From assembly GCA_019566135.1 (NCBI GenBank), contig GCA_019566135.1_3044.1: DNA of 64,000 nucleotides. One strand, given 5' to 3'. The stretch is from a phage. The position numbers were made by a program, and so were the translations under genes. The notes below the pieces were generated by a model, which was not told where the DNA came from, did no database searches, and saw nothing but the letters and a program-made list of their open reading frames with translations. Numbering within the stretch: position 1 is the stretch's first letter; each line of letters starts with the position of its first letter. Positions 17,297 through 63,345 of this stretch are shown in pieces.

Positions 17297-17301
17297 ATTG
17301 A

Positions 17302-17327
17302 GGGAGCCTTCGGGTTCCCTTTTTCTT
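17302..17327 (+). terminator. Terminator-like hairpin after gene 35
   Basis: GGGAGCC-UUCG-GGUUCCC followed by UUUUUCUUU. Confidence 0.55.
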
Positions 17328-18026: not shown

Positions 18027-21000
18027 ATGGCTACTTTAAAACAAATACAATTTAAAAGAAGCAAAACCGCAGGCGCGCGTCCTGCTGCTTCAGTATTAGC
18101 CGAAGGTGAATTGGCTATAAACTTAAAAGATAGAACAATTTTTACTAAAGATGATTCAGGAAATATCATTGACTTGAGCATTTCCACTGGCGGCAATATC
18201 AGTGGAAATATCACTCAAACTGGTGATTATTTACAAAACGGCACGTATAATCTTAATGGAAACCAGTTTGTTTATGCAGGAAAATACATTGAATTTTTAC
18301 CTAAAACCGCTGGTAATGGTGCGTGGGCAAATCAACACCTCAATAAAGCTCCTATCTTTACAGATTTAAGTTCAACTACTTCTGTTTCAGAATATCATCC
18401 ACTCATTAAGCAGCGTTATAAAGATGGGACTTTTTCTGTTGGTACGTTAGTAAACGAAGGAAGTTTTAAAATTCATTATATTAATGAATCGGGAACTTCA
18501 AAATATTGGACATTTCGTAGAGATGGTGGATTTGTTGTTGATACAGGAAGTTTGACAGTAACAGATGGAAATATTTCTGCCTCTGGTAATATTAATTCAG
18601 CTACTGGGGTAGTTTCTGCTCCGCAGATTAATACAAAGACTATAGTTTTTGATACAAAAGCGTTCGGACAATATGATTCGCAGTCATTAGTTCAATATGT
18701 TTATCCTGGAACAGGTGAAGCAAACGGAATCAATTACCTTCGCAAATTCCGTGCTAAATCTGGTGGTACAATTTATCATGAATTAGCTTCTGCGCAAACC
18801 GGAAAAAGTGATGAACTTTCTTGGTGGACTGGTAATACAGCGGTTAATAAACAAATGGGCCTTCGCAATGATGGGTCTTTAGTACTACGACGTTCACTTG
18901 CAATTGGTACAATTACAACAGATGAAAACATCAATAACTACGGTTCCACTGGAGCAATGGGCGAATGTTATATAGTTATTGGTGATGCATCAACAGGTTT
19001 ATCATACAAAAAAACTGGGGTATATGACTTAGTTGCTAGTGGTCTTTCTGTAGCATCTATTACTCCTGATAGTTTCCGTAGTACGCGCAAAGCGATTTTT
19101 GGACGCTCGGAAGACCAAGGCGGTACGTGGCTTCTTCCTGGTCAAAACTCATCTCTTCTTTCAGTTCGTACTGAAGCTGACCAAAACAATAATGGAGATG
19201 GTCAGACACATATTGGCTATAATAGTAATGGTAAATTTTATCATTATTTTAGAGGCAGAGGAAGAATGGCCATTGGAATGGCCGAAGGACTTATTGTTGA
19301 ACCAGGAATTTTAGATATTAAAACTGGTTCAAATACATTAAGTTTGCGTGCTGATGGTACCGTCGCTTCTGTTCAAACATTAAAGCTTAATAATGGATTA
19401 TATTTTAATAGCGATGGAACTAACGCTTCTCTAATTTTTAAAGCAGCTTCAGGTATTGATGGTACTAAACAAATACTTTGGGAAGGTGGTACTCGTGCTG
19501 GGCAGAATAAGAGCTATGTAACTGCTAAAGCTTGGGGAAATTCATTTAATTCATCTGGCGATCGTAATCGTGAAACGGTTTTTGAAGTATCAGATGGACA
19601 AGGATATTATTTTTATGCTCAACGCGTAGCTCCTGCACCAGGTTCAACAACTGGTGCAGTTCAATTTAGAGTTGCCGGAGCATTATTAACTTCTGGCGGT
19701 ATTACATCATCTGGTTCTATTGTTACTGAATCTAGCTTAGTTGCAAATAATGGATTATCTGTAAATGGACAAGCTAAATTTGGTGGAACAGCAAATGCAT
19801 TAAGAATTTGGAATGCCGAATATGGCGCCATATTCCGTCGCTCAGAAACAGCATTGCACATTATTCCTACTCTTAAAGACCAAGGAGAAAATGGTGAAAT
19901 AGGTAATCTTCGTCCATTGAGCATCTCACTTAACAACGGTATGGTTCAAATGCGCCATTCTGTCACGTTAGGTGATGATGGTGCAGGCGGTAATATGGTG
20001 ACGGTTGATAATGATTCTAAAGTTATAGTAATGACGACTAATAGCCGTATTAGTCCTAACTTCCGTATGCAAATTGGACAGTCGTCTTATATTGATGTGG
20101 AATGTACTGATGCTGTGAGACCTGCTGGAGCCGGTTCTTTTGCTTCACAGAATAACGAAAACGTTCGCGCTCCGTTCTATATGAATATTGATAGAACAGA
20201 TACAAGCACTTATGTTCCTATTGTGAAACAAAGATACGTGCAAAATAATAGTTGCTATTCTATTGGTACTTTAATTAATGGTGGTAACTTTAGAGTTCAT
20301 TATCATGAAGGTGGCGATGGCGGTTCTACAGGCGCAATTATAAAAGATTTAGGATGGGAATTTAATAAAAACGGTGATTTTTATTCTCCTGGTAAATTAG
20401 GCGCTGGAAATATTAGAATAGGTACTGATGGTAATATCACGGGTGGTTCTGGTAACTTTGCTAACTTGAATACAACTTTAAACCGTAAAGTTAATTCTGG
20501 TTTTATTGCTTATGGAGCAACGGCAGGTTGGTACAAGTTTGCAACAGTAACAATGCCTCAAGCTACATCAACTGTTTCAATTACAGTCACCGGTGGAAAT
20601 GGATTTAATTCTGGGTCATTTAATCAGTGTGCAATTTCTGAAATTGTTCTTCGTACAGGAAACAATACTCCTAAAGGATTAAATGCTGTTCTATATAGAA
20701 GAGGACTAAATTCATTTAGAGATATTGCTTGGGTTAATACATCTGGTGATACATATGACATTTATGTTAATATGGGAACATATGCTAATCAGTTGATATT
20801 TAACTATAGTTCTGTTGATAACGCCACAGTTCAAATTATTGGCGCATTCAGCTCAGCTCAAAATCCTGTTGATGCATTGCCAGAAACATATGTTAAAGGT
20901 CAGGTAGCAGATGTATTGACTAACTTAGTTGATTCTGGAAAAACGAAGCGTTTTGTTGCTGAATCTGAAATAGCTGTTAATAATCAAACTGGATTACGTA

Positions 21001-21890
21001 TTACGAGTAACGGTGATAAATCTGGTTCAAATTCAGTATTATTCAGAAATGATGGCGGTAGTTTTTATATTCTTTTAACAGATAAAAACGCAGCAGATGG
21101 AAATACGACTGCTACAGAAGGAGATTGGAATGGTAAACGTCCTTTCCAAATTAATATGACTTCTGGTGAAGTAACATTTGGAAATAATATTAATATTTCT
21201 GGAAACGGAAGCATTAATTGGACAAAAGCCAGAGCAAACCCTAGAAATATGAGAATATTTCATGCAGGTGATGCTTCTCGTGGTAACCGTATTGAAATCG
21301 CAGATGATACTAACTATATTGCTTACTTTGAAAAAACTCCAGGTGGAGCTAACCGCTTTGTAGTAAATAATGCTACTGTAGCTGGTGTTAATCAAATGAA
21401 TTCATTTGGTATTAACATCAATAACGCGCTTGGTGGAAATAGTATAACATTTGGTGATAGCGATACTGGTATTAAGCAAAATGGCGATGGATTATTAGAC
21501 ATATATGCGAACAACGTACAAGTATTCCGTTTCCAAAACGGTGATTTGTACTCATACAAAAATATAAATGCTCCAAACGTTTATATTCGTTCTGATATTC
21601 GTTTAAAATCCAACTTCAAACCTATCGAAAATGCGCTTGATAAAGTTGAAAAACTTAACGGTGTCATTTACGATAAAGCTGAATATATCGGTGGAGAGGC
21701 AATTGAAACTGAAGCGGGTATTGTGGCTCAAACGTTACAAGACGTTTTACCAGAAGCTGTCCGTGAAACAGAAGACAGTAAGGGTAATAAAATACTCACT
21801 GTTTCTTCTCAAGCCCAGATTGCTCTTCTGGTTGAAGCTGTGAAAACACTTTCTGCTCGTGTAAAAGAACTTGAATCTAAACTTATGTAA
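18027..21890 (+). CDS. 37: Long tail fibre distal subunit gp37, T2-type with C-terminal intramolecular-chaperone-like domain
   Basis: 1287 aa; C-terminal ~100 aa (SDIRLKSNFKPIENALDKVEKLNGVIYDKAEY...) resembles autocleaving chaperone domains. Confidence 0.88.
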   Translation: MATLKQIQFKRSKTAGARPAASVLAEGELAINLKDRTIFTKDDSGNIIDLSISTGGNISGNITQTGDYLQNGTYNLNGNQFVYAGKYIEFLPKTAGNGAWANQHLNKAPIFTDLSSTTSVSEYHPLIKQRYKDGTFSVGTLVNEGSFKIHYINESGTSKYWTFRRDGGFVVDTGSLTVTDGNISASGNINSATGVVSAPQINTKTIVFDTKAFGQYDSQSLVQYVYPGTGEANGINYLRKFRAKSGGTIYHELASAQTGKSDELSWWTGNTAVNKQMGLRNDGSLVLRRSLAIGTITTDENINNYGSTGAMGECYIVIGDASTGLSYKKTGVYDLVASGLSVASITPDSFRSTRKAIFGRSEDQGGTWLLPGQNSSLLSVRTEADQNNNGDGQTHIGYNSNGKFYHYFRGRGRMAIGMAEGLIVEPGILDIKTGSNTLSLRADGTVASVQTLKLNNGLYFNSDGTNASLIFKAASGIDGTKQILWEGGTRAGQNKSYVTAKAWGNSFNSSGDRNRETVFEVSDGQGYYFYAQRVAPAPGSTTGAVQFRVAGALLTSGGITSSGSIVTESSLVANNGLSVNGQAKFGGTANALRIWNAEYGAIFRRSETALHIIPTLKDQGENGEIGNLRPLSISLNNGMVQMRHSVTLGDDGAGGNMVTVDNDSKVIVMTTNSRISPNFRMQIGQSSYIDVECTDAVRPAGAGSFASQNNENVRAPFYMNIDRTDTSTYVPIVKQRYVQNNSCYSIGTLINGGNFRVHYHEGGDGGSTGAIIKDLGWEFNKNGDFYSPGKLGAGNIRIGTDGNITGGSGNFANLNTTLNRKVNSGFIAYGATAGWYKFATVTMPQATSTVSITVTGGNGFNSGSFNQCAISEIVLRTGNNTPKGLNAVLYRRGLNSFRDIAWVNTSGDTYDIYVNMGTYANQLIFNYSSVDNATVQIIGAFSSAQNPVDALPETYVKGQVADVLTNLVDSGKTKRFVAESEIAVNNQTGLRITSNGDKSGSNSVLFRNDGGSFYILLTDKNAADGNTTATEGDWNGKRPFQINMTSGEVTFGNNINISGNGSINWTKARANPRNMRIFHAGDASRGNRIEIADDTNYIAYFEKTPGGANRFVVNNATVAGVNQMNSFGININNALGGNSITFGDSDTGIKQNGDGLLDIYANNVQVFRFQNGDLYSYKNINAPNVYIRSDIRLKSNFKPIENALDKVEKLNGVIYDKAEYIGGEAIETEAGIVAQTLQDVLPEAVRETEDSKGNKILTVSSQAQIALLVEAVKTLSARVKELESKLM

Positions 21891-21891
21891 A

Positions 21892-21909
21892 AGAGGGCTT
21901 CGGCCCTCT
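21892..21909 (+). other. Perfect stem-loop AGAGGGC-UUCG-GCCCUCU between genes 37 and 38
   Basis: 7-bp stem with UUCG loop; no U-tract; sits just before the gene 38 SD. Confidence 0.5.
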
Positions 21910-21920
21910 AAGGATTTTTA

Positions 21921-22712
21921 ATGGCAATTGTAGGTGTTCCTGGCTGGATTGGTGAATCTGCCGTGAATGAAACTGGACAACGCTGGATGGATGCTGCAAT
22001 GAAAGCAGTTCGCGTTTCAGTTCCTGGCTGGATGAGTTCAATGGCTGGACAATCTAAAGAAGTATATTATAGTGTTGGTGCTAGTAATTCTTATAATAAA
22101 GACACACTAATAAATTGGATAAAAGCTCAAGGCAGTACTCCTGTTGTTATTACTATTACAGGAAATATTGTTTCTCAATCTACTGGTGTTCCATGCTTAG
22201 ATTTTCCTAGCTCATTAACTAATGCGTATGTTACCTTAAATATTAATAGCGGGGTTCATGTATTAGGTCGGGGAGGAAATGGCGGAAGTAACTCTGCTGG
22301 TGGAGCAGGAGGAACTGCAATAAATAACGGAATTGGAACTCGTTTAAGAATAAACAATAACGGTATTATTGGTGGCGGTGGCGGTGGCGGCGCTGGTGCT
22401 AGATACCATCCTTTCCCTCAAATGGATATGATATTTGGTGGCGGCGGAGGTCGTCCATTTGGCGCTGCTGGCGCAGCAGGAGGTGGCGCAGCGGCAGCAT
22501 CTGCTGGTACAATTTCTGCTCCTGGTAAAGGTACTGTTTCTGGGGTTCACTATGGAGGAAATGGTGGAGATTTGGGAGCTGCTGGCAAATCTTCATATAT
22601 TCAAGGTGGTACTGGAGGAACTGTTCACTCGGGTGGTGCTGCGGGTAAAGCTGTTACTGGTAATGCTCCAACTTGGACTAAAGTTGGTACAATATACGGT
22701 TCAAGAGTATAA
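21921..22712 (+). CDS. 38: Receptor-recognising adhesin gp38, T2-type with glycine-rich motifs
   Basis: 263 aa; poly-Gly/Ala segments (GGGGGGGAGA, GGGGRPFGAAGAAGGGAAAA) separated by variable segments. Confidence 0.85.
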   Translation: MAIVGVPGWIGESAVNETGQRWMDAAMKAVRVSVPGWMSSMAGQSKEVYYSVGASNSYNKDTLINWIKAQGSTPVVITITGNIVSQSTGVPCLDFPSSLTNAYVTLNINSGVHVLGRGGNGGSNSAGGAGGTAINNGIGTRLRINNNGIIGGGGGGGAGARYHPFPQMDMIFGGGGGRPFGAAGAAGGGAAAASAGTISAPGKGTVSGVHYGGNGGDLGAAGKSSYIQGGTGGTVHSGGAAGKAVTGNAPTWTKVGTIYGSRV

Positions 22713-22744
22713 TTTTTGAATAAATATCCTTAAAAGGAGGGTCT

Positions 22745-26223: not shown

Positions 26224-26253
26224 AAATAAAAAAGGGAGAGCCGAGGCTCTCCC
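26224..26253 (-). terminator. Rho-independent terminator after the gene 52 operon
   Basis: GGGAGAGCC-UCG-GCUCUCCC followed by UUUUUUAUUU. Confidence 0.7.
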
Positions 26254-26258
26254 TAAAA

Positions 26259-28039: not shown

Positions 28040-28195
28040 TCAACTATTTTTAGAACCAATGTACGCGAATAATGATAAAATCGCTAATACGCCCTGAGCT
28101 GATGCTTGCAAAAATACTGAAGTTTCTCCAGTTATTACTGTTCCGATGCATAAAAAGAACCAACAGAAAAAGGCTATACCGTGAACAAATTTCAT
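28040..28195 (-). CDS. Ac-like paralog (51 aa, MKFVHGIAFFCWFFLCIGTVITGETSVFLQASAQGVLAILSLFAYIGSKNS)
   Basis: Tandem to ac with shared motif FxCWxxxC...SVFxQAxAQG; GAGGA SD. Confidence 0.55.
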   Translation of the reverse strand: MKFVHGIAFFCWFFLCIGTVITGETSVFLQASAQGVLAILSLFAYIGSKNS

Positions 28196-28202
28196 ATTTT
28201 CC

Positions 28203-28283
28203 TCACTGGCGTCCGAAGACGCCTTTGGTTTTAAGATTGTTACGATAGAACTGCATCACGTGTTCGTTGTGGAAATTACTCAT
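28203..28283 (-). CDS. stp: Stp peptide (26 aa; trigger of the PrrC anticodon nuclease in T4)
   Basis: Translates [26 protein letters not shown], the T4 Stp sequence as remembered; ATG overlaps the ndd stop. Confidence 0.8.
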
Positions 28284-29992: not shown

Positions 29993-30022
29993 ATAGTACC
30001 ACGGTCCTTGTGGCATGTAAAC
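29993..30022 (-). promoter_or_regulatory. T4-type early promoter
   Basis: -35 GTTTAC 30022..30017, -10 TACTAT 29998..29993. Confidence 0.6.
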
Positions 30023-30038
30023 CATTTTATGAAATTTT

Positions 30039-30596
30039 TTAAATGGAAAGATACCATCCGTTGTAGTTGCTTTTTCTTACAACCTTACGAAGGTCTTCTC
30101 TATCACCGATGAACTTCGGAGTGTACTGGATGACACCTGGATGAATTTCTTTAGTGTTGAATATAATTATACAGTCAGCGACTTGATGATTTAGAATGGG
30201 CCCTAGATTTATTCCAGAACCGTATGGATACTCTCCGCTGTATCCTGTCGTTACTGAAATCCATCGAGAGTCAGTTTGGTGTGTTTTAACTTCTACCCGA
30301 AGCCCGCAGTATTTTGGATGTGCTAAAACATCCCATGCATATGTATACGGATCATCGACGTCTTCTTGACCTTTATTAACATACCCACTTAACCAATCTG
30401 CTACAACATACTCAGCATACACTGCGATACGGCATCTTTCGATAACTTCTGCTTTATCCTGGTTCGGGTTTTGTTTTAAAGAGTATCTTGCTGTATCAGC
30501 AATTTTGACCTTCATTTCACTAGTCAAGTCACTGTTCGATAGGGTAAATGTCGGAATCTGAAATAGTCTCTGTAAACCCGGATTCGTTTTCTGCAT
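30039..30596 (-). CDS. denB: Endonuclease IV
   Basis: 185 aa; position between ndd region and rIIB. Confidence 0.8.
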   Translation of the reverse strand: MQKTNPGLQRLFQIPTFTLSNSDLTSEMKVKIADTARYSLKQNPNQDKAEVIERCRIAVYAEYVVADWLSGYVNKGQEDVDDPYTYAWDVLAHPKYCGLRVEVKTHQTDSRWISVTTGYSGEYPYGSGINLGPILNHQVADCIIIFNTKEIHPGVIQYTPKFIGDREDLRKVVRKSNYNGWYLSI

Positions 30597-30640
30597 TTAA
30601 ACTTTCCTTTATGTCGGAATCATAATTTCTCTTAAAACAA

Positions 30641-30656
30641 AAGGGCCGAAGCCCTT
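30641..30656 (-). other. Stem-loop AAGGGC-UUCG-GCCCUU (copy 1)
   Basis: Perfect 6-bp stem with UUCG loop on the transcribed strand, right after the stop of the 64-aa ORF. Confidence 0.6.
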
Positions 30657-30659
30657 ATT

Positions 30660-30854
30660 TTATTTGAATTGTGCGATTCTTTTCTCTAGACACTCAGCAT
30701 AAGATTTCATTGAGATGAATTGTGAAAGCAGCAGTTCTTGCTCAACTGCACTAACTGTTAGAAACTTTGCGCTTTCTAAAAATTTGCTCAGTGCATTAAT
30801 TTTGAGCATTAATTGATCGTATTCTTCTTTTACTCGTGCTTGATAACCTAACAT
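30660..30854 (-). CDS. Hypothetical coiled-coil protein (64 aa)
   Basis: ORF flanked by identical hairpins. Confidence 0.5.
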   Translation of the reverse strand: MLGYQARVKEEYDQLMLKINALSKFLESAKFLTVSAVEQELLLSQFISMKSYAECLEKRIAQFK

Positions 30855-30872
30855 AATTTTCCTTAATATGAT

Positions 30873-30888
30873 AAGGGCCGAAGCCCTT
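30873..30888 (-). other. Stem-loop AAGGGC-UUCG-GCCCUU (copy 2), overlapping the rIIB stop
   Basis: Identical sequence to the 30641-30656 hairpin. Confidence 0.6.
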
Positions 30889-31825
30889 ATTTAAATTGTT
30901 CAGTAACGTCTTCAACCACTTCGTATTGGCAGGTACGCATTTTAGCATCATTGTAATCAATCGGAATTGATACTACATCACGTGGATGTACTTTAACTTT
31001 TACAACTCGACTGGTTGAACTGCCAAAGTGACGAATATAAGATTTAGAACATACATGCAGACCACGAGAACAAGTTTGTGTATCATCGTCATTCACACGA
31101 GTACGCGGCATTTTAACTACTTTACCAGGACTGTTATCAAAGGTGTTTGAGTGACAGTCAAAGTAGTTGTCACGAACTACTTTCCAAGCATAGAAGTAAC
31201 CATCTTCGGTGATTTCAATATCGTTTGCTACCAAGAAATCAAAGAGTCGAGATACCGCTTTTTGGCTTGGGTTTTCCAGCAGATTTTCCAAGAACGGAAA
31301 ATAAAATTCAAAATTTTCGCCTTTTTCCATCGAGTCAAGAATACGATCAACCAGACCAGACCGTAATTCGATATTTTGATAGAACAAGCTTCCGCCTTCA
31401 ATTCGAACATCACCGGAAATATATTTTTCAACAGCGCGACGAACATTAATTTTTTGTGCAGCTTCTTCCAGCTTATCCGCTACAAGCAGATTAAGAATTT
31501 CCTGGAAGTTTGAATGAGTATTAGGAGTTGCGTTATAAGTTACACCGTCAACAGTAATTGAAATGAATTTTTTAGATGCATTCCAAATAATGTCAGATTT
31601 AGCAACTGGAGCAATAACTTCATCGCTATTAACTTTAACTGTAATATCACCGCTAATAGTAACTTTAGGGCGTTTAGCTTCTTCAGCATTTTTCAAAACA
31701 CGACGAATTGTGTCAACCGATACACCTTGCCAATCAGCCAATTCCTGTTGGGTGTAATTACCACTTGAATACAGTTTAACAATTTCAGCTTGTTCGTTTT
31801 TGGTCAGGCATTTAATATTGTACAT
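30887..31825 (-). CDS. rIIB: rIIB protein
   Basis: 312 aa (same as T4 rIIB); adjacent to rIIA. Confidence 0.9.
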   Translation of the reverse strand: MYNIKCLTKNEQAEIVKLYSSGNYTQQELADWQGVSVDTIRRVLKNAEEAKRPKVTISGDITVKVNSDEVIAPVAKSDIIWNASKKFISITVDGVTYNATPNTHSNFQEILNLLVADKLEEAAQKINVRRAVEKYISGDVRIEGGSLFYQNIELRSGLVDRILDSMEKGENFEFYFPFLENLLENPSQKAVSRLFDFLVANDIEITEDGYFYAWKVVRDNYFDCHSNTFDNSPGKVVKMPRTRVNDDDTQTCSRGLHVCSKSYIRHFGSSTSRVVKVKVHPRDVVSIPIDYNDAKMRTCQYEVVEDVTEQFK

Positions 31826-31836
31826 AATTTTCCTTA

Positions 31837-34014
31837 TTAGGCCGCAAGGGCCTTCATAGTTTTAGCGATTTGAGAAACTTCATCATCACTTAAAGAGTTG
31901 CGATATCCGATGAAGTCGGAAACAATACGGAATTTCTTGGTAAACTCAGCAACCATTTTATCACTGTTTTTTGAAGCATTATTTGATAATACATCAAAAA
32001 GATTAGTTACTGTCCAGATGTCATGACCGATGGTATCTTTTCCACCATTAAAATATACACCGCGCAATGAACTAACTATATTAGCGAGTCGTGTATATTC
32101 TTCAGAAACTTCATCTGTACTGAAGTACTTCATCATAAAATCTAGTTCAGGATACTTGATAATTTTATCAATATATCGTTGAGCTGAACTTGAATAACCT
32201 ACATACTTATCATAATCTACATCATCAAAAGCATCTACATATAAATCACGCAAAGCTTCAAAAATACATTGGCACTGACCGAGTTCTTTTACCTTTTTCT
32301 GTAAAAGCGGACGAATAACATAAAATTCATTAATGCCAATAAGATTAGCCATACGAATCAAAATATTCATAGATGGATGACAAAGTGATGTAGTACCATC
32401 CATAGAGAAAATATCAGAACGATGCATATACGCTACATAACCAGTAATTTCATCTGCTTCTGACGTAAGTGTAAATAATTCCTCTTTTTCCCAACGCCCA
32501 TCTTTAATTTCAAACTTAAATGCTGTAGCAGCTTTAGGACGAGGAGCTTTACTTTTAACTACCTTTGGAATATAGCTTTTAACTAAAGCTTCAATTTCTG
32601 ACAAATAATGAATGTTAACTTCATCACTTTCAAACATTGCCATAATATCAGGTAGTAAATCAATCTGCGATTCTACTTCTGGATTAATAAACAGAAGACG
32701 CTCATTATGATGAATATTTAAGGTGTTATTAAATTCGCTATCATCTAATGCACGTGCTAATCCACGGACAATATTAACGCGATTTTTAATATTATCAATA
32801 ACAATATTAATTTTTGTCGTATTAATACCAAACAGACGATAGCTTGATGCAACGGCTGAAGTTTCATGACTTTGCTTAATGCGTTTCAGTCGAGGGTCAA
32901 GATTTACTTCATACACAACTCCTGCATTGCATAACTTACTGTCAGGTTCAAACATGCTCTGCATCTTTTTATATGACAGATTTTTAGTCGTGAATTTGAC
33001 CGAATTACTAATCATATAATCTCGAGCAGAATACCCCATCTTCATTAATTCGCGATATGTATGACGAGGAGATGTAGATTCTTTAAATCGTTTTACATCT
33101 TCATTAAATGCTTTCTCACTGAGTTCTTTAACTCGTTCAATAATATTTTTACGAGTGCGATCATCTAGTGAAAGAGCCTCGCGAGATGGAGCAATATCAA
33201 GTGAACCCATTGGAAACTTAATGTAATTCACTTCATTGCGAATGCTTAGCCAGTTACGCTCTCTAATAACACCATCGATAGGATAAACAATACCACCATA
33301 GATAGCATATAATCCACCACGATCAGGCCAGTATCTTTCTGGATTTACACCGTAATAGTCATCAAAATCCGGAAAATAATCAATTTCGCGGTCAAGACCA
33401 TTAATGATAGCCAAATCTTTGAACGGTCGCATGATATAAGAAACTTCATAAGCAAAGTTTCTAAAGTCTTTTTCTTCAACTGGAACTACGATTTCAATAC
33501 CAGTTTTATCATCTGGACCCATTTCTTTCACGAATGTAGGTTTAATTTGTGGACCATCGCCATCCATGTAAGCTACATAACCACGAATTTCACCTTTATG
33601 ATACGAAGTAATACTAAATGTATCAGTATAACTAAACGGAGATTTAGAACCTAAACCAAATCCGCCAATGAAATCGTTAGATTCAGCCTTAGATGAACTG
33701 AAGTATGAATTATACAAACCAGGAGAATTATCATCACCCTGAATATCAAAATCACTCATACCCGGACCAAAATCTCGGCAAACAAATCGTGGATCTAAAC
33801 GTCCAGGAACTTGAATGATAAATTTTTCAGGATTTCCATTGAGAGCATGGGCATCAATCATGTTGGTAATCAATTCACGGACTACTGCGCGAATCTTGTT
33901 TGTATACAAATCAGACGACAGAATTTTAAATACTTTAGGAGATGCTGTGATGCTAAATGCTTTCGATTTAGAACCATTACCAAGAATTGTTTCTTTTTCA
34001 GTGGTGATAATCAT
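31837..34014 (-). CDS. rIIA: rIIA protein
   Basis: 725 aa (same as T4 rIIA); ATPase-like N-terminal region. Confidence 0.92.
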
Positions 34015-36152: not shown

Positions 36153-36170
36153 AAAGGCCCGAAGGCCTTT
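36153..36170 (-). other. Stem-loop AAAGGCC-UUCG-GGCCUUU at the stop of the lipoprotein gene
   Basis: 7-bp perfect stem with UUCG loop. Confidence 0.55.
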
Positions 36171-47320: not shown

Positions 47321-47349
47321 ACGAAAAAAGGAACCCCGAAGGATTCCTT
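47321..47349 (-). terminator. Rho-independent terminator after soc
   Basis: AAGGAAUCC-UUCG-GGGUUCCUU followed by a U-tract. Confidence 0.7.
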
Positions 47350-53295: not shown

Positions 53296-53658
53296 TTAAA
53301 AGAATTTAAACTTTTTCTTTGATCTTTTATTAAATGCATCTTGTAGTTGCATTGTAATACATTTTTCTACATGAGGAGCTAACTCAGCTTTTCTTTCTTG
53401 GTCAAGAACAGCAAAGTCCATTACGACTTTTCCATCAACCCAATCTAATTTTGTCACATACACAATGTGTGTAGAACCATCTTCTAGTTTAATGACAATC
53501 TCCTGGATAACATTTTCCATGGCAGATTTAATTATCTTAAGAGATTCATTAAAAAGACGTTCTTTTCTTTCTTCTTCCCCCTCCGAAGAGGGGGATTCAT
53601 CGATAATTTCTAGATCTAAATCTAAATCATCTTTATTCATTAAATTCTTCCATATCAC
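53296..53658 (-). CDS. 40: gp40 (head assembly accessory protein)
   Basis: 120 aa; position between uvsX and 41. Confidence 0.75.
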   Translation of the reverse strand: MIWKNLMNKDDLDLDLEIIDESPSSEGEEERKERLFNESLKIIKSAMENVIQEIVIKLEDGSTHIVYVTKLDWVDGKVVMDFAVLDQERKAELAPHVEKCITMQLQDAFNKRSKKKFKFF

Positions 53659-57676: not shown

Positions 57677-57702
57677 TATGAAAAAGGGACCCGGAGGTCC
57701 CT
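57677..57702 (-). terminator. Rho-independent terminator after gene 43
   Basis: AGGGACC-UCCG-GGUCCCU followed by UUUUUCAUAC. Confidence 0.65.
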
Positions 57703-60469: not shown

Positions 60470-60487
60470 AAGGGGCCGAAGCCCCTT
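60470..60487 (-). other. Stem-loop AAGGGGC-UUCG-GCCCCUU after the stop of the 77-aa ORF
   Basis: 7-bp perfect stem; a TATAAT (60461..60456) follows. Confidence 0.55.
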
Positions 60488-60489
60488 GC

Positions 60490-60723
60490 TTAAATTAATA
60501 CCAGTTGTCGGTGAAAAATTGTTAATCCATCTGCATTAATTGACTTAACCACTGCGGTAAAGTGTTTTTGTTCTGGGTGAACTAATTTTTGAAATTCTAC
60601 CTGAAATTTTAGTTGGAGGTTTTCTGGTAAATCAAAAAGTGTTTCTGTTGCAGAAAGATTATATTTTTCTTTAAGAGACGCCATGTATTCTTGCGGAGTT
60701 ATAGCAGTCATATTAATTACCAA
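60490..60723 (-). CDS. Hypothetical protein (77 aa) between regA and 43
   Basis: ORF overlapping the regA 3' end. Confidence 0.5.
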   Translation of the reverse strand: MVINMTAITPQEYMASLKEKYNLSATETLFDLPENLQLKFQVEFQKLVHPEQKHFTAVVKSINADGLTIFHRQLVLI

Positions 60724-62607: not shown

Positions 62608-62639
62608 AATTTCCTCATTCAAGTTTTAGTGTAAATTAT

Positions 62640-62657
62640 AAAGGGCCGAAGCCCTTT
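62640..62657 (-). other. Stem-loop AAAGGGC-UUCG-GCCCUUU between genes 45 and 44
   Basis: Same AAGGGCUUCGGCCCUU core as the hairpins at 30641 and 30873. Confidence 0.55.
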
Positions 62658-62658
62658 A

Positions 62659-63345
62659 TTAAAAATCGTGGGTAGAATCAGCTTCAAGAGCTACTACATA
62701 ATTTGCGTGTTCACCTTCAAATTTAGCAGCACCTTGTTTACCTTTTGCCCAGAGTAGAAGTTTATAATTTCCTGGTTGCATTTTCATATTTGCCATATTG
62801 ATAATGAAATTAAATGTATTTTCACCATCATAATCACCGAGAGTCAAAGAATATTTAACACGGGTCAGAGCAGAATCTTCTACTTTATTAAAACCGTTAA
62901 TTACGATTTTACCTTCTTTTACTGTGATAGCAATTGTATCAATTTGCAGACCACGAGATACACGTAACAGTTGTTGAAGGTCTTCAGCTTTAATTTCAGT
63001 AACAACAGATGCTACCGGGAATGGAATTGGTTTATTAGGAGCAACTACTGTACTCGGATCGGCTGCTGGCCAAAAAATTGTTGAGCGAGCATCAGCAATT
63101 TTAATATTTCCATCTTCTGACTGGGAAATTTCTGCATCATCATTAACTAGAGACAGAATACCGAGAAAACCGTTCAAATCGTAAATTGCTACATCAAAAT
63201 CAATAACGTCAGAAATATTTGCTTCCGCATAAGTTGTACCATTAACTGCGCGAGTCATAATAAATTGACCGGATTTAAGCATAATACCGGAGTTAATAGT
63301 AGCGAAATTTTTAAGCAGAGCAGTAGTATCTTTAGACAGTTTCAT
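62659..63345 (-). CDS. 45: Sliding clamp gp45
   Basis: 228 aa (same as T4 gp45). Confidence 0.93.
   Translation of the reverse strand: MKLSKDTTALLKNFATINSGIMLKSGQFIMTRAVNGTTYAEANISDVIDFDVAIYDLNGFLGILSLVNDDAEISQSEDGNIKIADARSTIFWPAADPSTVVAPNKPIPFPVASVVTEIKAEDLQQLLRVSRGLQIDTIAITVKEGKIVINGFNKVEDSALTRVKYSLTLGDYDGENTFNFIINMANMKMQPGNYKLLLWAKGKQGAAKFEGEHANYVVALEADSTHDF

Follow-up and report, generated by a model that had tools for sequence, protein, structure and literature searches.

UUCG-tetraloop hairpins at cistron boundaries of a T4-like phage: a rediscovery of the T4 CUUCGG hairpins

Introduction

REP-type and other intercistronic hairpins of E. coli are stable structures positioned just past stop codons in polycistronic transcripts, and a block to 3' exonucleases has been proposed as their role. 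In the intercistronic regions of phage T4, the C(UUCG)G hairpin was reportedly first recognised as an unusually stable RNA by Tuerk et al. in 1988, in PNAS 85:1364. CUUCGG hairpins are further portrayed, in PMC8948821, which draws on Tuerk 1988, as especially abundant in T4 intergenic regions and able to halt reverse transcriptase; a preprint (bioRxiv 10.1101/2022.08.31.505936, citing Miller 2003) presents the T4 hairpins as recurrent and as a transcriptional terminator or RNA stabiliser, and PMC1702504 states that T4 intergenic stem-loops often contain UUCG and resist RegB. Stem-loop recombination cassettes known as PeSLs have also been published for T4-type phages (Arbiol 2010, Comeau 2014; PMC2839356, PMC4122927).

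The stretch of phage DNA analysed here, 64,000 nucleotides in length and hereafter called the window, belongs to a T4-like phage (Tequatrovirus): 519 phage records match positions 30000-31500 with identities of 90-98%, almost all being Tequatrovirus phages of Escherichia, Shigella and Yersinia, the same outcome was obtained from a 24-kb query, and the gene order is collinear with that of T4. The hairpins of the window share with the T4 CUUCGG hairpins the phage group, the stem-C(UUCG)G-stem motif and the intercistronic placement, with nine of the ten sites matched by a hairpin in the same place in T4; likewise, the published roles of terminator, stabiliser and reverse-transcriptase stop fit the layouts found here. 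This phage differs from T4 in single-base stem changes, an extra site at the T2-type gp37/gp38 junction, and small-ORF indels nearby. By analogy, the REP-type stabilisers of E. coli may be likened to this set, since both consist of stable hairpins after stops in polycistronic transcripts with a proposed exonuclease block; however, the phage hairpins are far shorter, carry a single tetraloop, lack any common consensus in their flanks, and are encoded by a phage. The finding is, in short, a rediscovery of the T4 CUUCGG hairpins and already known (Tuerk et al. 1988).

Hairpin inventory of the window

An exact search of the whole 64-kb window finds the 16-mer AAGGGCTTCGGCCCTT three times (30641-30656, 30873-30888, and 62641-62656; shuffles expect 0), in every case on the minus strand, the coding strand of the genes there. 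This agrees with an earlier sequence-only reading, in which two copies were said to bracket a 64-aa ORF, now recognised as denB.1 at 30660-30854(-), and the third to lie between genes 45 and 44. The same reading had listed similar UUCG hairpins at six further coordinates, one of them within the 3' end of stp; each proves to be a genuine C(UUCG)G hairpin, and the stp hairpin coincides with the last codons of that gene at 28208-28223(-). It had missed a UUCG hairpin in the interior of gene 40 at 53576-53595(-), as well as three related sense-strand hairpins at 57685-57702 (UCCG), 26233-26254 (CUCG), and 528-551 (GCAA).

When the stem is required to have at least 5 bp, the window contains ten C(UUCG)G hairpins, whereas 60 dinucleotide shuffles yield 0.1 on average and never more than 1, and every other tetraloop class occurs at most three times. 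All ten have a C-G closing pair and a stem of 6-9 bp, and each folds as a single predicted hairpin of -9.3 to -16.7 kcal/mol. A stop codon is located within 12 nt of eight of the ten. The UUCG reads in the mRNA sense at all ten sites, two in the plus-strand tail-fibre block and eight in the minus-strand early genes; because a DNA palindrome would show no such strand bias, the orientation points to action at the level of RNA rather than DNA. The hairpins and the genes around denB.1 are as follows.

17300..17321 (+): GAGGGAGCC(UUCG)GGUUCCCUU with a U-run, after gene 35
21892..21909 (+): AGAGGGC(UUCG)GCCCUCU, immediately 3' of the gp37 stop
28208..28223 (-): GGCGUC(UUCG)GACGCC, in the last codons of stp (…KGVFGRQ-stop)
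30039-30596 (-): denB
30641..30656 (-): AAGGGC(UUCG)GCCCUU then UUUUGUUUU, after denB.1; canonical intrinsic-terminator layout
30660-30854 (-): denB.1, the 64-aa ORF between two hairpins and between rIIB and denB
30871..30890 (-): AUAAGGGC(UUCG)GCCCUUAU, after rIIB; -11.9 kcal/mol
30887-31825 (-): rIIB
36153..36170 (-): AAAGGCC(UUCG)GGCCUUU, after the 39.1 stop
47328..47349 (-): AAGGAAUCC(UUCG)GGGUUCCUU with UUUUUUCGUUUUU, after soc; terminator layout
53576..53595 (-): UCCCCCUC(UUCG)GAGGGGGA, in the interior of gene 40 (codons for ESPSSEGE)
60470..60487 (-): AAGGGGC(UUCG)GCCCCUU, after ORF43.1 (in T4, after regA)
62638..62659 (-): AUAAAGGGC(UUCG)GCCCUUUAU, between gene 45 and gene 44
57685..57702 (-): AGGGACC(UCCG)GGUCCCU with UUUUUC, a UNCG-type relative; terminator layout
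26233..26254 (-): AGGGAGAGC(CUCG)GCUCUCCCU with UUUUUUAUUU, a related hairpin; terminator layout

The protein encoded by denB.1 matches Pfam PF21825 (crAss001_48-related). In the rIIA-rIIB spacer, at 31839-31853, a small G+C hairpin (AGGCC…GGCCU) with an mRNA-sense loop containing UUGC is another, non-UUCG member of the gene-boundary set.

Surroundings of the individual sites

As the sequence-only reading had proposed, many of the hairpins adjoin stop codons or Shine-Dalgarno sequences; others adjoin a promoter or coding sequence. The hairpin after rIIB starts within the rIIB stop codon, lacks a U-tract, and continues into CAUAUUAAGGAAAAUUAUG, which comprises the ribosome-binding site (AAGGA) and the start of denB.1, with the ATG 16 nt on. 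Similarly, the stp hairpin leads into the ribosome-binding site GAGG, with the next ATG 11-12 nt away, and the hairpin at 21892 lies 11 nt before the start codon of a gp38 adhesin gene of the T2 type. Downstream of the gene 35 hairpin, a late-promoter box TATAAATA precedes gene 36, and the 39.1 hairpin is followed by a MotA-box-like GCTTTA and a TATAAT upstream of gene 39. Directly past the soc hairpin there is a near-consensus sigma-70 promoter at 47312-47284(-), TTTACA-17-TATAAT with TG (11/12). At the 45/44 junction the hairpin has the tail UAAUUUAC with no clean U-tract, and promoter-like hexamers (TTAATA-16-TATAAT) span both of its sides at 62662-62635(-). The hairpin at 60470 is followed by UUGGAGTATAAT, upstream of gene 43, and like that of 39.1 has a promoter box on its 3' side. 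The hairpin of gene 40 lies about 45 nt past the stop codon of uvsX, with coding sequence continuing after it. The site homologous to 30641 carries the annotation 'terminator' in phage Kha5h.

Several neighbouring features were observed in passing. The gene at 21921-22712(+), which comes after the hairpin of gp37, codes for a T2-type gp38 adhesin rich in glycine and not the T4-type gp38 chaperone, and the stretch 20471-22719 has no counterpart among the T4 loci compared. Homology with T4 also stops 18 nt 3' of the stp hairpin, and the gene after stp (28043-28190, -), which begins MKFVH…, diverges from T4 ac across approximately 150 nt.

Conservation and covariation

The nine sites with a T4 match are those after gene 35, in stp, after denB.1, rIIB, 39.1 and soc, in gene 40, after regA, and at 45/44; for the hairpin at 21892, no homologue was found among the T4 loci compared. 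RB69 (Mosigvirus) retains UUCG hairpins at four sites, namely upstream of 39, after soc, in gene 40, and at regA-43, where the stems are altered yet complementary, and it has a GAAA hairpin in place of UUCG at the 45-44 junction. Upstream of gene 39, for example, RB69 carries AAGGGC(UUCG)GCCCUU at the same position as the 36153 hairpin of the window, and the soc hairpin shows compensatory changes relative to both T4 and RB69. Between ndd and the gene that follows it, a UUCG hairpin is lacking in RB69 and in four further genera, so the stp hairpin is lineage-specific, and an ancestral hairpin under stp was discarded on the same ground.

Two junctions were followed more widely. The 45-44 spacer holds a tetraloop hairpin in all 16 related loci compared, with stems of GGGC, GGGCC, GGGAC, GAGGCC, GGAGGA, or AUGGGG(U) and loops of UUCG, UACG, GAAA, or UUUG; six of seven stem pairs are changed on both sides. 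The tetraloop hairpin after rIIB occurs in eight genera (Tequatrovirus, Mosigvirus, Karamvirus, Gelderlandvirus, Jiaodavirus, Gaprivervirus, Kanagawavirus, and Lazarusvirus), with five of seven stem pairs changed on both sides. In both alignments 95-97% of cells are paired (95% at the rIIB junction), far over shuffled and slid controls, a percentage that arises partly by construction because the alignments were anchored on a hairpin chosen for each orthologous junction. In the close relatives L005, L006, L028, and L167 a UUUG loop replaces UUCG, and the UUCG loop itself is therefore not strictly required. As read from these alignments, the combination of covarying stems and tetraloop swaps is the classical signature that would be left by a structural tetraloop under selection, not by a conserved DNA sequence. 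Since the stems covary and the loop is exchanged for UACG, GAAA, or UUUG, selection appears to act on RNA structure and not on a repeated DNA element.

The hairpin within gene 40 is kept in several gp40 lineages (L016 22722-22741; L161-L175), a conservation that is confounded by that of the encoded peptide. RB69-type phages show a synonymous compensatory change in it, CCC/GAG to CCU/GAA, and other gp40 lineages keep a CCCCCUC/GAGGGGG stem with the loop UCAG (Ser-Gln); its codons have G or C at the third position, and the G+C content of the genome is 35%. This hairpin may mark the 3' end of the uvsX transcript or take part in regulation of gene 40.

Identity of the three 16-mers

The exact 16-mer occurs in at least 120 unrelated viral contigs, whose G+C spans 27-67% among the matches listed; its flanks are variable and often lengthen the stem, and a U-rich tail follows it in 45% of the matches listed. 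RB69 carries the 16-mer at a different locus, upstream of gene 39, where the window reads AAAGGCC…GGCCUUU, and the 45/44 copy of the closest relatives reads GAGGGC… against AAGGGC… in the window, a difference of 1 nt. The copies that flank denB.1 drift independently in relatives: L005 and L006 show a UUUG loop, and L006 in addition has G in place of A. The generic nature of the 16-mer, its other locus in RB69, the 1-nt difference, and the independent drift together point to convergence in a small sequence space, and the identity of the three copies seems best explained in this way, that is, by a UAA or A-run, a 3-4 bp G/C clamp, C(UUCG)G, and a U-run. A mobile or repeated element was rejected in view of the occurrence in at least 120 unrelated contigs, the RB69 locus, and the 45/44 difference.

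Terminators, attenuators and stabilisers

The terminator criterion selects the hairpins at 17300, 30641, and 47328, with a marginal result at 21892, together with the UCCG (57685) and CUCG (26233) relatives, and it leaves out those at 30871, 28208, 36153, 53576, 60470, and 62638. The sequence-only reading was thus right that many of the hairpins have no U-tract. Like Rho-independent terminators, the hairpins at 17300, 30641, 47328, 57685, and 26233 combine a G+C-rich stem and a short loop with a U-run; unlike them, six of the ten UUCG hairpins are without a U-run, and a ribosome-binding site, promoter, or coding sequence adjoins them immediately on the 3' side. The further suggestion of the same reading, that the hairpins are RNA determinants and not just terminators, holds as far as action at the RNA level (sense strand at 10/10, covariation) and the minority of hairpins with a U-tract are concerned.

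Overall, the hairpins are very probably T4-type mRNA C(UUCG)G tetraloop hairpins that act in RNA at cistron boundaries, as terminators or attenuators or as stabiliser-insulators. They are short, G+C-clamped, very stable stem-loops that would work on the transcript and not on the DNA. Those with a U-run (after denB.1, soc, and gene 35, and the UCCG and CUCG relatives) are candidate intrinsic terminators or attenuators. A second group, made up of the hairpins after rIIB, gp37, 39.1, regA/43.1, and gene 45 and those in stp and gene 40, would most likely block 3'-to-5' exonucleases, so that processed or read-through transcripts of the upstream cistron keep a stable 3' end, and would also stop a downstream ribosome-binding site from pairing with upstream sequence. 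Judging by position and stability, an exonuclease-barrier or insulator role is the most likely one for the hairpins that lack a U-tract, and this stabilising role is supported by the published terminator or RNA-stabilising role and the resistance to RegB. The three identical 16-mers would be convergent answers to one design, in which a UAA stop or A-run, GGGC, UUCG, GCCC, and a U-run follow one another. A literature search found no T4 Term-seq study.

It may be argued that all of the hairpins are merely Rho-independent terminators or attenuators of varying strength, with no separate stabilising role; four UUCG hairpins and two relatives do have clear U-runs, interrupted U-rich tails are present at 36153, 60470, and 62638, and PeSL stem-loops without perfect tails are reported to have terminated efficiently in reporter assays. 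However, the hairpins of rIIB, gp37, stp, and gene 40 are followed by CAUAUUAAGG, AAGGAUUU, AGUGAGGA, and AGAAGAAAG, respectively; the next start is only 11-16 nt away in the first three cases and coding continues in the fourth; termination there would sever co-transcribed downstream genes. Moreover, the rIIB hairpin without a U-run is kept in Gaprivervirus and Kanagawavirus, and a purely terminating role for the whole set is unlikely. The palindromes might instead act as DNA, in the form of cruciforms, protein-binding sites, replication or packaging signals, or copies of a mobile repeat, which would account for the recurrence of perfect inverted repeats and the threefold exact 16-mer. Such elements should have no strand preference, yet the UUCG is in transcript sense at every one of the ten sites; orthologous sites switch to the RNA-stable UACG and GAAA with covarying stems; G·U pairs fail on the complementary strand, so that an opposite-strand scan recovers only eight of the ten hairpins; and the 16-mer is scattered across unrelated viral contigs. 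Rfam likewise returned no family match anywhere in the 64-kb window, as expected for hairpins so generic, and a function at the DNA level is scarcely credible.

Presence and absence of denB.1

The hairpins that flank denB.1 are embedded in a direct repeat of 41 nt (30626-30666 against 30858-30898) with 78% identity and a 20-nt perfect core, which takes in the Gln-Phe-Lys-TAA ends (three codons and the stop) of rIIB and of denB.1. In other genera, the rIIB and denB.1 proteins both natively end in x-Phe. Gene conversion or an old crossover could have produced the repeat.

Phage records with DenB number 1,092, and those with denB.1 number 662. The gene is absent from Mosigvirus, Karamvirus, Gelderlandvirus, Jiaodavirus, and Lazarusvirus, where a single hairpin occupies the site. 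The first four of these genera have the order rIIB, one U-run hairpin, and a DUF7418 ORF of about 95-110 aa; in Lazarusvirus (Kimel), a single UUAC hairpin is followed directly by denB, with no intervening ORF. In Gaprivervirus and Kanagawavirus, rIIB is followed by a hairpin that lacks a U-run, then by denB.1 and the DUF7418 ORF, the second hairpin being absent. Tequatrovirus has both hairpins. The 3' flank of the single hairpin in the genera without denB.1 matches the flank of hairpin 2 in L005 and L006. The DUF7418 ORF is intact in these two Tequatrovirus relatives (1214-1543 in L005), persists as a longer remnant in T4, and is cut in the window at 30597-30640(-) to the four-codon remnant ATGATTCCGACATAA.

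Some further observations concern the same regions. The DUF7418 ORF (PF24193, RB69ORF272c), about 95-110 aa in length, is located between a terminator hairpin and denB in many relatives (e.g., L013 2288-2575). In a Gelderlandvirus-like contig (L011 860-2500; IMGVR_UViG_2706796257_000001), an insert of about 1.5 kb separates a duplicated 5' fragment of denB from intact denB and carries, besides a D12-class N6-adenine DNA methyltransferase, a 205-aa ORF for which Pfam gives no match. At 60490-60711(-) the window has a 73-aa ORF (PF25760, Phage RB18 ORF43.1) that is absent from T4. It stands as an insertion after the regA stop and before the regA-43 hairpin, from which the insertion boundary is 7 nt away, and GGTAATTAA / GGTATTAATTTAA recurs at both ends of the insertion.

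The sequence-only reading had raised the hairpins as possible recombination sites and had asked whether the bracketed ORF varies in presence among related phages. It does vary between genera, and the indel boundary coincides with a hairpin, which is what the PeSL model would lead one to expect; however, denB.1 was never seen to be missing within Tequatrovirus, where 497 records carry a close DenB and likewise 497 a close denB.1. A query with a synthetic denB.1-deletion junction gave matches of which the best 25 all retain denB.1, as the two or three pieces that span about 565 nt in them indicate. Hairpin-to-hairpin deletion of denB.1 within the genus was rejected on these two results. The window differs from T4 by 27 indels or replacements of at least 15 nt, and a boundary within 40 nt occurs at three of eight hairpin junctions and at 19 of 95 other junctions, which is not significant (Fisher p = 0.36); the hairpins were consequently dismissed as preferred indel breakpoints between window and T4.

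The PeSL comparison is similarly divided. In common with PeSLs, intergenic stem-loops here flank small non-essential ORFs in plastic regions, the presence or absence of denB.1 between genera coincides with hairpins, and a PeSL-like layout of hairpin and promoter is present after soc (47349-47284) and at 45/44 (62662-62635). The hairpins flanking denB.1 differ in lacking the sigma-70 promoter of the PeSL composite (sigma-70-like promoter, stem-loop, and ribosome-binding site), besides yielding neither mini-circle nor deletion evidence and showing no significant boundary enrichment: the spacers of denB.1 are 32 nt (rIIB-denB.1) and 63 nt, and the sole promoter-like match is weak (9/12, 30895-30868) and overlaps the end of rIIB. 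Their membership of the PeSL class was dropped, as there is neither room for a promoter nor a good match to one.

The hairpins could still owe their main significance to recombination, as promoter-less PeSLs whose 16-20 nt repeats let denB.1 be excised or inserted as a cassette. The 41-nt repeat, whose 20-nt core and shared QFK-stop of rIIB and denB.1 have been described above, speaks for this, the genera without denB.1 carry one hairpin with a hairpin-2-like 3' flank, hairpins also border other indels, namely that of ORF43.1 (60494) and the deletion of DUF7418 (30623), and PeSL-mediated shuffling is known in T4-type phages, including the ndd region of T4/PST (PMC2839356, PMC4122927). Against this, the counts of DenB and denB.1 in Tequatrovirus are equal, the best junction-query matches all keep the gene, Gaprivervirus and Kanagawavirus hold denB.1 with one flanking hairpin only, indel boundaries show no significant enrichment, the 32-nt rIIB-denB.1 spacer is too short for the defining promoter, and the two copies evolve independently in L005 and L006, all of which makes a linker function as the main significance doubtful. 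With no loss seen within the genus, no significant boundary enrichment, and a layout outside the PeSL definition, recombination at the hairpins is possible but unproven and is not needed to explain them. A narrower proposal, based on the shared 20-nt core and the similar QFK-stop ends, is that a PeSL-type shuffling with terminators but no promoters could have left the pair around denB.1 as its trace, the small, widespread PF21825 gene having been gained or lost by homologous exchange within the hairpin; this too is rather improbable.

The T4 reference sequence

In the T4 reference NC_000866 (about 167710, 167960, and 31905), one G/C is missing from each stem in all three homologues of the 16-mer. 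The recent T4 assembly OZ209057 has the complete AAGGGCTTCGGCCCTT at both denB.1-flanking sites, which were the two sites checked, and the older partial record D16359 has the full version at one site only. To judge from these records, the stem gaps of NC_000866 are probably legacy gel-compression errors.

Conclusions

As a discovery, the set has little significance, the terminator and stabiliser roles of C(UUCG)G hairpins being textbook knowledge. For annotation, only some of the hairpins merit designation as terminators, the three 16-mers should not be entered as a repeat family or mobile element, and a check of the hairpins flags likely single-base errors in the legacy T4 reference. Should the improbable proposal of terminator-only shuffling be true, RNA hairpins of extreme stability would also serve as linkers for DNA recombination throughout Straboviridae.
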